From Candidatus Woesearchaeota archaeon (GTDB taxonomy: Archaea > Nanobdellota > Nanobdellia > Woesearchaeales > GW2011-AR9), in assembly GCA_016188115.1 (NCBI GenBank), contig JACPIK010000002.1, positions 599,847 to 631,846 of the forward strand: 32,000 bases of DNA. The letters are read 5' to 3'. Positions within the stretch are counted from its first letter, which is position 1; every line of letters begins with the position of its first letter. Made by a program: the position numbers and the translations under genes. A model generated the notes under the pieces. It saw nothing but the letters and a program-made list of their open reading frames with translations. It did no database searches and was not told the DNA's origin. Positions 10,395-31,455 of the stretch are shown here, piece by piece.

Positions 10395-10542
10395 ACGACC
10401 AAAAAGAATGAGGTGATATTTATAGTTATATGGTGTTGAGCAGAGACAGAATATTTGACTCCTAAATCGAAAAGTAAACGATAACTACTTTCTAGGGACT
10501 AAATAAGCAAAATTTATAAAAAACATAATAGAATTTGAAAAC

Positions 10543-13264: not shown

Positions 13265-13433
13265 CGAGCCAGGGAGGACGTTCCCAATCTCTTGTTTCCA
13301 AAAGATTGTTTTGAACCCCCGAAGACAAGCTTACTTCTTCTCAAAAAGAGAATAGGAGGCTTGTGCCCTATGTACCCTTCAACTTTGACAATTTAGTTTG
13401 CCTAAAATGTTGTCCAGGCTAGGCGACTGGCTC
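13265..13433 (-). tRNA. tRNA-Arg (anticodon CCU) interrupted by three insertions or introns
   Basis: Minus strand: GAGCCAG-TC-GCCT-AGCCTGGACA-[~42 nt, 13369-13410, boundaries uncertain]-GGGC-A-CAAGC-CTCCTA-[21 nt, 13332-13352]-A-GCTTG-TCTTC-GGGGG-TTCAAA-[31 nt, 13279-13309]-T-CCTCC-CTGGCTC-G. All stems pair. U8, A14, G18G19, U33, A37, G53-C61 and the TTCAAAT loop are present. 75 nt of exon plus 94 nt of insertion equals 169 nt. Promoter and oligo-T terminator flank the gene. Confidence 0.7.
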
Positions 13434-20824: not shown

Positions 20825-23197
<2,373 letters not shown>

Positions 23198-29618: not shown

Positions 29619-29667
29619 TCATCTTAGAAGAAAAAAATAGTATAAAAAAGTATGGAAATTAAAAGAA

Positions 29668-29843
29668 TGGCCCCGGCGAGACTTTCAATCAGCAACCTGC
29701 TGGGCTAAGCGAAGCACATGCCCGCTTTTTTCCCAGGTTTTCTTAAAAGCTGTGTTTGAACTCGCCACCACCGGCTTGCTTAAACAAGCGCATGGAACGC
29801 TGCCATATAAGACCGGCGCTCCACCAGGCTAAGCTACGGGGCC
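29668..29843 (-). tRNA. tRNA-Ile (anticodon UAU) with two introns, at 37/38 and in the T-loop at 59/60
   Basis: Minus strand: GGCCCCG-TA-GCTT-AGCCTGGTG-GAGC-G-CCGGT-CTTATA-[29 nt, 29777-29805]-A-GCCGG-TGGTG-GCGAG-TTCAAA-[73 nt, 29682-29754]-T-CTCGC-CGGGGCC-A. 74 nt of exon plus 102 nt of intron equals 176 nt. Both introns form 3-nt bulge / 4-bp helix / 3-nt bulge motifs. No CCA is encoded. Confidence 0.8.
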
Positions 29844-29865
29844 ACATTTTCTAGAAAAAGACCTG

Positions 29866-29874
29866 CTTTAAAAG
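29866..29874 (-). promoter_or_regulatory. TATA-like box for tRNA-Ile
   Basis: The minus strand reads CTTTTAAAG, centred about 27 nt upstream of the tRNA 5' end at 29843. Confidence 0.45.
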
Positions 29875-29949
29875 ATTTCCTACACAGATGAAGCAGAAAA
29901 ACAATGAGCCAACAAGCATAGCTACAATCCAAGTACATTTATAAAAACA

Positions 29950-30501: not shown

Positions 30502-30585
30502 GACTTTGAAATTTACACTACTTTTAGATTACAATAAAGATATATAAAAGAAAAAATAGGTATTTGTAGCATAAAGAGGCGTTCC

Positions 30586-31455
30586 ATGAACATTAACCAG
30601 CTACGTAAATTAATGGATCGTAAAAAAACTTCTCATAAAGGAGAAAACGGTCACGTTTTAATCATTGGCGGTTCAGAAGAGTACGTCGGAGCAGTTGTTC
30701 TTGCTGGTCTTGCAGCGTTGCGTTCTGGATGCGATCTTGTAACCGTTGCTTCACCAGAAAAAGTCGCTTGGGCAATTAATCGTTATTCACCAGATCTACT
30801 CACACAAAAAATCAAAGTCGCGTTCACTGTAAAACTTGCAAAAGACATGGTCAAACAAGTTGAAAAATATGATGCAATACTTATTGGTAACGGGATAACC
30901 AAACATGCAGATAAGTTCTGTCAATATTTTATCCGTAAATCCCCAAAGTTAAAAGTAATAGACGCAGATGCTCTAAAAGGACTCTCATTTAAAGAATTTA
31001 GTAACTCTATTCTTACCCCACATGAAAAGGAACTCGAACAAATGTTGATTAATAGTAACAAAGAGTTTCTTTTACCAAAATTACGTGAAGCAAATCCAAA
31101 AGAGAAAGCAGAAATTCTCCAAGGCAACCTTCGTTATTTCTTACAAAACGACAATGTTTTGCTCGTAAAAGGACCAACAGACATTATTATCTCGAAGAAC
31201 AAAATCGCATTTAATAGAACCGGAAATCAAGGCATGACTAAAGCAGGAACAGGTGATGTGCTTGCAGGTATTTGCGCAGGATTTCTCGCGAAAAGCGGAG
31301 ATCTTTTCAAAAGCGCAGTTGCCGCATCCTACATTAATGGATATGTTGCGGACATCTTGTTAAAAAACAAAAAAGGATATAGTTTTATTGCCTCTGACAT
31401 TGTTGAAGACCTAGGAAAAGTTCTCGCAATGGATAAAAAAGTAAAGAAACCGTAA
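30586..31455 (+). CDS. nnrD: ADP-dependent NAD(P)H-hydrate dehydratase (YjeF C-terminal / carbohydrate-kinase fold)
   Basis: HKGENGHVLIIGGSEEYVGAVVLAGLAALRSGCDLVTVASP and GTGDVLAGICAGFLA. Confidence 0.85.
   Translation: MNINQLRKLMDRKKTSHKGENGHVLIIGGSEEYVGAVVLAGLAALRSGCDLVTVASPEKVAWAINRYSPDLLTQKIKVAFTVKLAKDMVKQVEKYDAILIGNGITKHADKFCQYFIRKSPKLKVIDADALKGLSFKEFSNSILTPHEKELEQMLINSNKEFLLPKLREANPKEKAEILQGNLRYFLQNDNVLLVKGPTDIIISKNKIAFNRTGNQGMTKAGTGDVLAGICAGFLAKSGDLFKSAVAASYINGYVADILLKNKKGYSFIASDIVEDLGKVLAMDKKVKKP

Follow-up and report, generated by a model that had tools for sequence, protein, structure and literature searches.

A Predicted tRNA-Ile(UAU) Gene Split by Anticodon-Loop and T-Loop Introns in a Woesearchaeota-Like Archaeon

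The window, that is, the whole 32-kb stretch of DNA analyzed here, carries a 176-nt tRNA-Ile(UAU) gene on its minus strand at 29668–29843. The minus-strand reading of this segment proposed in a first-pass annotation matches the sequence base for base. According to Pfam searches of the window ORFs, the neighbors are ordinary archaeal housekeeping genes, encoding aIF2-gamma, IMP dehydrogenase, an adenylosuccinate synthetase-HAD fusion, adenylosuccinate lyase, an Asp/Asn-type tRNA synthetase, PEP carboxylase, UvrC, a VTT/DedA membrane protein, and NAD(P)HX dehydratase. The tRNA gene consists of three exons and two introns, all on the minus strand. Exon 1 (29843–29806, 38 nt, tRNA positions 1–37), delimited from the sequence, ARAGORN, and covariation, contains the 5′ strand of the acceptor stem (GGCCCCG), the D-arm, the 5′ strand of the anticodon stem (CCGGU), and the loop residues CUUAUA, which include the anticodon U34-A35-U36. 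It is followed at the canonical 37/38 site by intron 1, UGGCAGCGUUCCAUGCGCUUGUUUAAGCA (29805–29777, 29 nt). Exon 2 (29776–29755, 22 nt, positions 38–59) comprises A38, the 3′ strand of the anticodon stem (GCCGG), the variable loop UGGUG, the 5′ strand of the T-stem (GCGAG), and the T-loop residues UUCAAA. Intron 2 (29754–29682) interrupts the T-loop between positions 59 and 60 and, with its 73 nt, compares with 74 nt for the spliced tRNA. Exon 3 (29681–29668, 14 nt, positions 60–73) supplies U60, the 3′ strands of the T-stem (CUCGC) and of the acceptor stem (CGGGGCC), and the discriminator A73, and encodes no CCA. The 29-nt canonical intron and the 73-nt T-loop intron announced in the earlier annotation are therefore both present, and its statement that more than half of the gene is intron agrees with our count of 102 of 176 nt (58%). 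The G+C content reaches 65% in the exons, about 50% in the introns, and 36–40% in the window.

An archaeal promoter is predicted from the sequence at 29866..29880 (minus strand). By eye, a TATA-like box, TTTTAAAG, is located at 29873–29866 (−30 to −23 relative to the 5′ end of the mature tRNA), and GGAAATC stands just before it, where a TFB-recognition element (BRE) would be expected. This TATA-type box may act as the promoter of the tRNA-Ile gene. Similarly, the T-rich tract TTCTTTTAATTT read directly 3′ of the discriminator (29656..29667, minus strand) is likely an archaeal oligo-T terminator. The same TATA-like box occurs upstream of the ortholog in the closest relative, described below. 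By eye, TATA-like boxes are found about 25–38 nt upstream of most orthologous tRNA-Ile(UAU) genes, and T-runs follow most of them.

Removal of the two introns in silico restores a canonical cloverleaf. The conserved tRNA residues U8, A14, G18-G19, U33, G53-C61, U54-U55-C56, and A58 are all found in the spliced sequence. ARAGORN calls the spliced 74-mer tRNA-Ile(tat), with the anticodon UAU, as the assignment to isoleucine in the first-pass annotation had anticipated, and none of 2,000 shuffles of the 74-mer was called a tRNA. The locus is base-identical in separate assemblies of the runs SRR12113422 and SRR12113421, which rules out an assembly artefact; run SRR12113419 also contains the organism. 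This agreement between two assemblies, together with the ARAGORN call, the result of the shuffling, and the compensatory changes in orthologs reported below, indicates that the spliced tRNA-Ile is not a chance pattern.

The unspliced gene is cryptic to standard tools. Default ARAGORN found no tRNA in the whole 32-kb window, and Rfam returned nothing at the gathering threshold in the window and nothing at E ≤ 10 around the unspliced tRNA-Ile locus. These misses are expected for a gene with two introns and thus provide no evidence against it. Using the full RF00005 model of Rfam, five orthologs with only the canonical intron score 54.8–62.9 bits, relative to a gathering score of 29, and an intron-free bacterial relative (L012) scores 79.3 bits. 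In a scan of splice combinations, ARAGORN tolerated 446 of 2,701 alternative junction pairs. The exact junctions therefore rest on the bulge-helix-bulge (BHB) geometry and on the orthologs without the intron.

At each intron, both splice sites fall within 3-nt bulges, and a 4-bp helix lies between the two bulges. At the 37/38 site, C32-U33-U34-A35 pairs with the intron sequence UAAG, and the bulges are U36-A37|U and C-A|A38, as the earlier description of a canonical BHB intron (CUUA/UAAG, UA|U and CA|A) had it. The outer helix of this hBHBh′ motif is the anticodon stem, and the inner helix is the intron hairpin GGCAGCG/GCGCUUGUU. The pairing at the 59/60 site, which had not been written out previously, gives an equivalent BHB. 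There, U54-U55-C56-A57 pairs with the intron sequence UGAA to form the 4-bp central helix, flanked by the bulges A58-A59|C and A-G|U60. The T-stem GCGAG/CUCGC constitutes the outer helix, and the inner helix (h′) is made of an A-U pair plus CAGC/GCUG with one bulged A, so that this motif is not a perfectly strict hBHBh′. Each splice site lies between the sixth and seventh nucleotides of a 7-nt loop closed by a 5-bp stem. According to this shared loop geometry, the 59/60 site is the T-arm counterpart of the canonical site. As both motifs keep the two bulges and the 4-bp helix, a broad-specificity endonuclease would not be strictly needed for their cleavage. When folding is constrained to the cloverleaf and the two BHB motifs, the precursor can adopt this structure, at −64.6 kcal/mol. 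Without constraints, the minimum free energy is −73.8 kcal/mol, and this difference of about 9 kcal/mol counts against the BHB fold.

Orthologs were collected by scanning one genome per species with the pattern GAGCGCCGGYCTTATAN{0,30}ARCCGGYGGT, which is able to match genes without a canonical intron as well. The 33 loci returned comprise 24 archaeal orthologs, mostly labeled Woesearchaeota, Nanoarchaeota, or Nanoarchaeia, and eight bacterial tRNA genes (from Gemmataceae and others), which share the UAU anticodon arm but have no intron. The remaining locus, L018, was rejected as a chance match to the pattern without a tRNA. Six contigs with a DPANN-type tRNA-Ile(UAU) (L003, L009, L013, L020, L030, and L033) are labeled “uncultured Methanosarcinales archaeon”, and L018 and L032 bear bacterial labels. 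The Methanosarcinales labels and the bacterial label of L032 probably reflect mistakes in binning or in taxonomic labeling.

The canonical intron is present in all 24 archaeal orthologs, with a length of 17–30 nt, and usually begins with UGGC or UGAC. Conversely, the T-loop intron varies both in presence and in length. Eleven of the 24 genes harbor a 59/60 intron, of 18, 27, 28, 30, 30, 32, 47, 73, 96, 97, and 124 nt, respectively. A twelfth gene with an intron at this site (L001) is ended by a contig edge. In L020, the T-arm intron, 30 nt long, is inserted at 53/54 and not at 59/60, and 11 of the 24 orthologs have no T-arm intron at all. The sequence TTCAAAT or TTCGAAT is contiguous in the 11–12 orthologs lacking a T-loop intron, which fixes the 59/60 splice junction. 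Six of the 24 (L005, L007, L019, L024, L025, and L026) carry, besides the introns at 37/38 and 59/60, a third intron of about 24–37 nt in the D-loop.

The cloverleaf and the two BHB motifs are conserved and covary among these genes. In the spliced cloverleaf, 99.8% of the cells are paired, compared with 27–57% for slid partners, and seven pairs have changed on both sides (20 distinct sequences). For the hBHBh′ motif at 59/60, the values are 91% and 32–53%, with eight covarying pairs in 12 genes. All four pairs of the inner helix covary there, though the intron sequences are otherwise unrelated, and in the central helix A57-U is replaced by G57-C in L019 and L024. For the motif at 37/38, 88% of the cells are paired, compared with 19–50% for slid partners, and two pairs have changed on both sides among 23 distinct orthologs, a covariation limited by construction since the scan pattern fixed the anticodon stem-loop on the exon side. 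These patterns of covariation support the cloverleaf and both BHB motifs.

The closest relative of the window locus is L011, from Woesearchaeota isolate nzgw60, in which the neighboring gene shows 78% nucleotide identity. The exons of the two tRNA genes are identical (74/74), the promoter region is near-identical, and intron 1 differs at 4 of 29 positions. However, the T-loop intron of L011 is an unrelated hairpin of 30 nt, as against 73 nt in the window. As judged from this sequence comparison, purifying selection has acted on the exons only. In the same way, L019 and L024 have near-identical exons and D-loop introns, whereas their T-loop introns measure 18 and 97 nt. Taken together, the two comparisons indicate that the inside of the 59/60 intron can vary freely, with the junction motif being maintained. 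A synteny walk via NAD(P)HX dehydratase homologs (96%, 90%, and 84% identity) revealed no closer relative of the 73-nt intron.

A T-arm scan allowing for an insertion at 59/60 disclosed a second hidden gene in the window, a tRNA-Arg(CCU) gene of 169 nt with three introns (13433..13265, minus strand). Its introns are located in the D-loop (about 42–45 nt), at 37/38 (21 nt), and at 59/60 (31 nt). A TATA-like box at about −30 and a T-run accompany it. Default ARAGORN and Rfam both miss this gene, and every spliced version of 13433..13265 is called tRNA-Arg(cct) by ARAGORN.

The 5′ end of intron 2 of the tRNA-Ile gene contains a conserved 26-nt module, CAGCTTTTAAGAAAACCTGGGAAAAA (29727..29752, minus strand), which is TATA-like and may form a hairpin. 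It lies within the first 28 nt of the intron and is present in one copy in the 32-kb window. Its consensus is CAGCTTTT(T)AAGAAAA(A)CCTGGGAAAAA, that is, CAGC-T4/5-AAG-A4/5-CCTGGGAAAAA. By eye, the module looks like the TATA-type promoters of neighboring tRNA genes. A metagenome scan identified three further contexts for this module. In L034, it opens the 59/60 intron of a three-intron tRNA-Arg(CCU) gene (around 10395–10422). In L003/L035, it is free-standing, 55 nt downstream of tRNA-Ile(UAU) and before tRNA-Glu (5143–5170 in L003). Finally, in L036, it belongs to a 92-nt tandem array of 2.9 copies at a contig end (1–273). L034 is related to L003, with one protein 74% identical, so that the module has been seen in two lineages. 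The 59/60 introns of the window tRNA-Ile(UAU) gene and of the tRNA-Arg(CCU) gene of L034 thus offer one case of a 28-nt module shared between tRNA species, although the copies are too few and come from different genomes. We found no match to the module in the viral collection, no Rfam family at the module-bearing loci, and no structure that all copies have in common. Intron 2 was also considered as the host of a C/D-box small RNA, an idea rejected by inspection, as CUGA is present but a C box is missing.

The assignment to isoleucine has one competitor within the tRNA calls themselves. When only intron 2 is removed, ARAGORN in intron mode reports a tRNA-Ala(tgc) with a 29-nt intron, and 16 splice combinations yield Ala(tgc). 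The intron would then lie 3 nt further upstream (35/36 in ARAGORN), leaving the loop CUUGCAA of a tRNA-Ala(UGC). We regard this reading as extremely improbable. Alanine identity is defined by a G3-U70 pair, and the acceptor stem has C3-G70, which excludes it. Moreover, the register required has no BHB geometry, and the GCA from which its anticodon would be drawn is intron sequence that is not conserved, the introns of orthologs ending with GAG, GAC, GTG, GTA, and others. Conversely, the UAU register, with its anticodon loop CUUAUAA, gives a BHB in 24 of 24 orthologs. Alternatively, the locus could be a pseudogene in decay or a tRNA gene interrupted by an inserted element, in which case the 73-nt insert would remain unexcised and the locus would be non-functional. 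The failure of standard tRNA finders and Rfam to see the gene would be consistent with such a fate, as would the 28-nt module that the insert shares with sequences outside tRNA genes, like an inserted repeat, and the fold of intron 2 alone, which is not unusually stable (z = −0.89). However, decay is hard to reconcile with exons 100% identical to those of L011 around a wholly different insert, with stems that are all intact, with a promoter and a T-tract that have been kept, and with AUA codons in use. In addition, the insertion is exactly at the BHB site, and this BHB has been kept by compensatory changes in 12 genes with unrelated inserts of 18–124 nt. A non-functional locus is thus very unlikely.

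A further reading concerns intron 2 only and is compatible with a functional tRNA-Ile(UAU) gene, to which it would add. Intron 2 might carry a mobile or functional RNA or DNA element, represented by the TATA-like, possibly hairpin-forming module. We consider this possible but rather doubtful. Occurrences of the module in the tRNA-Arg(CCU) intron of L034, free-standing in L003/L035, and arrayed in L036 hint at mobility, and similar introns in different tRNA species have been published as evidence for transposition in Thermoproteales (PMC4033280). The fast turnover of T-loop introns (73 nt in the window vs. 30 nt in L011, 18 nt in L019 vs. 97 nt in L024) points in the same direction. The window copy is shorter by one T and one A, which would preserve the possible hairpin, but such differences in the length of T- and A-runs may be simple slippage. 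Also against this reading, only four independent contexts have been seen, in two lineages, the window has a single copy, the viral collection and Rfam gave no match and no family, no structure is shared by all copies, and the likeness to promoters was judged by eye only. Under the more specific and unlikely proposal that the 73-nt intron is the vehicle of an element of about 28 nt moving between 59/60 sites (in Ile-UAU here and Arg-CCU in L034) and also found free-standing or arrayed, this element could be a mobile BHB intron, a stable (circular) small RNA released from the intron, or the relic internal promoter of a formerly split tRNA gene. If this were true, intron gain in DPANN tRNAs would be traceable to an identifiable element.

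Taken as a whole, the evidence makes it very probable that this tRNA-Ile(UAU) gene is functional and spliced in cis, in an archaeon of the DPANN group (Woesearchaeota-like). Known archaeal tRNA biology, together with in vitro work on ARMAN-2 substrates (PMC3239211), allows us to propose the steps leading from transcription to the decoding of AUA. Transcription from the TATA-type promoter would produce a precursor of about 176 nt ending at the oligo-T tract. In this precursor, each intron is expected to form a BHB together with the adjoining arm, which is the anticodon stem for the 29-nt intron (37/38) and the T-stem for the 73-nt intron (59/60). The splicing endonuclease EndA would recognize each BHB independently and cut in both 3-nt bulges of each motif. 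An RtcB-type ligase would then join the three exons, the introns being released, and the CCA end would presumably be added after transcription because none is encoded. Most archaea possess an agmatidine-modified tRNA-Ile(CAU), in place of which the mature 74-nt tRNA would here read AUA. AUA accounts for 126 of the 701 isoleucine codons in the window ORFs and, as this codon is in use, a decoder for it is needed. Among the 30 window ORFs of at least 120 aa, in these 32 kb only, Pfam searches detected no match to EndA, RtcB, or TiaS. As no endonuclease or ligase gene is found in the window, the type of the host EndA was taken from the literature on other Woesearchaeota, which have been reported to possess an alpha4 EndA with an L3 insertion, linked to more tRNA gene disruption (PMC5829648).

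Several features of this gene have precedents in other archaea. In the Thermoproteales, tRNA genes contain up to three introns, and intron transposition has been described (PMC4033280). Genes with multiple introns are reported for Pyrobaculum, Thermofilum, and Caldivirga (Sugahara et al. 2008; Fujishima et al. 2010, both as presented in the review PMC4033280). As in these organisms, several BHB introns occupy canonical and non-canonical sites of one gene, and such genes are hidden from ordinary tRNA finders. Similar intron sequences are found there in different tRNA species, to which the module shared with L034 may be a parallel. However, the host here is a low-GC (~38%) DPANN archaeon and not a hyperthermophilic crenarchaeote. 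The alpha4 endonuclease with an L3 loop expected from the literature also differs from the (alpha-beta)2 enzyme with the crenarchaeal loop of the Thermoproteales (PMC5829648).

[quoted passage not shown] Its tRNA-Ile(UAU) and tRNA-Cys substrates are cleaved in vitro by the cognate endonuclease (PMC3239211). The strict hBHBh′ canonical intron in tRNA-Ile(UAU) and the 59/60 T-loop site are common to ARMAN-2 and the window archaeon, whereas here both introns are combined in one Ile(UAU) gene. Moreover, the T-loop intron has 73 nt and both bulges here, whereas that of the ARMAN-2 tRNA-Cys has 13 nt and a relaxed hBH form, and the ARMAN enzyme is of the epsilon2 type, unlike the alpha4 type expected here. 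In Nanoarchaeum, Korarchaeum, and ARMAN, reported without TiaS, a tRNA-Ile(UAU) replaces the agmatidine system (PMC3895270; PMC3239211). The gene in the window resembles these AUA decoders in having the anticodon UAU and not CAU. The 59/60 position is also known as a BHB processing junction from the circularly permuted tRNA genes of Thermofilum pendens (PMC3978253), unlike which the present gene is collinear, that is, cis-spliced.

The occurrence of the canonical intron in 24 of 24 archaeal tRNA-Ile(UAU) genes recalls the obligatory intron of eukaryotic tRNA-Ile(UAU), which likewise combines this anticodon with a 37/38 intron pairing with the anticodon region. The intron of the eukaryotic nuclear gene is reportedly needed for the formation of pseudouridine at positions 34 and 36, a finding attributed to Szweykowska-Kulinska and colleagues in 1994. 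An intron-dependent modification in the window archaeon would, by analogy, be pure speculation. In eukaryotes, the endonuclease measures from the mature domain of the tRNA and would refuse a T-loop intron.

From DPANN (PMC3239211; PMC5829648) and from Thermoproteales, tRNAs with several introns, introns at 59/60, and tRNA-Ile(UAU) genes with introns are already known, and the current understanding of archaeal tRNA splicing is unchanged by this gene. Its main value is for annotation, with two tRNAs in a 32-kb window where default ARAGORN and Rfam see none. Parts of the tRNA set have often been reported as missing from DPANN genomes (PMC5829648), and cryptic multi-intron tRNA genes are a likely explanation. 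The ortholog set, with a canonical intron in every gene, a 59/60 intron in about half of them (18–124 nt), and a D-loop intron in a quarter, forms a natural series for the gain, loss, and resizing of T-loop introns and for the recognition requirements of DPANN endonucleases.

Some minor observations were made on the surroundings of the gene. The tRNA gene and its promoter are inverted relative to the NAD(P)HX dehydratase gene between the window (29755–29878 and 30514–31409) and L011 (4499–4623 and 4954–5849). A tRNA-Ile gene is not adjacent to the NAD(P)HX dehydratase homologs in L040 and L041 (96% and 84% protein identity, respectively). The tRNA-Ile(UAU) gene thus seems to sit at a rearrangement-prone spot. 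In its intron mode, ARAGORN also proposed a tRNA-Asp(atc) at c[18965,19289] on the minus strand, split by an intron of 234 nt, which we regard as a false positive because it falls inside the adenylosuccinate lyase ORF. Two GC-rich intergenic islands, near 290 and 9065, were considered as RNA genes and turned out to be protein-coding. Lastly, the adenylosuccinate synthetase encoded at 20825–23197 on the plus strand is fused at its C-terminus to a HAD-type hydrolase, through a long, low-complexity linker that includes a run of 14 asparagines.
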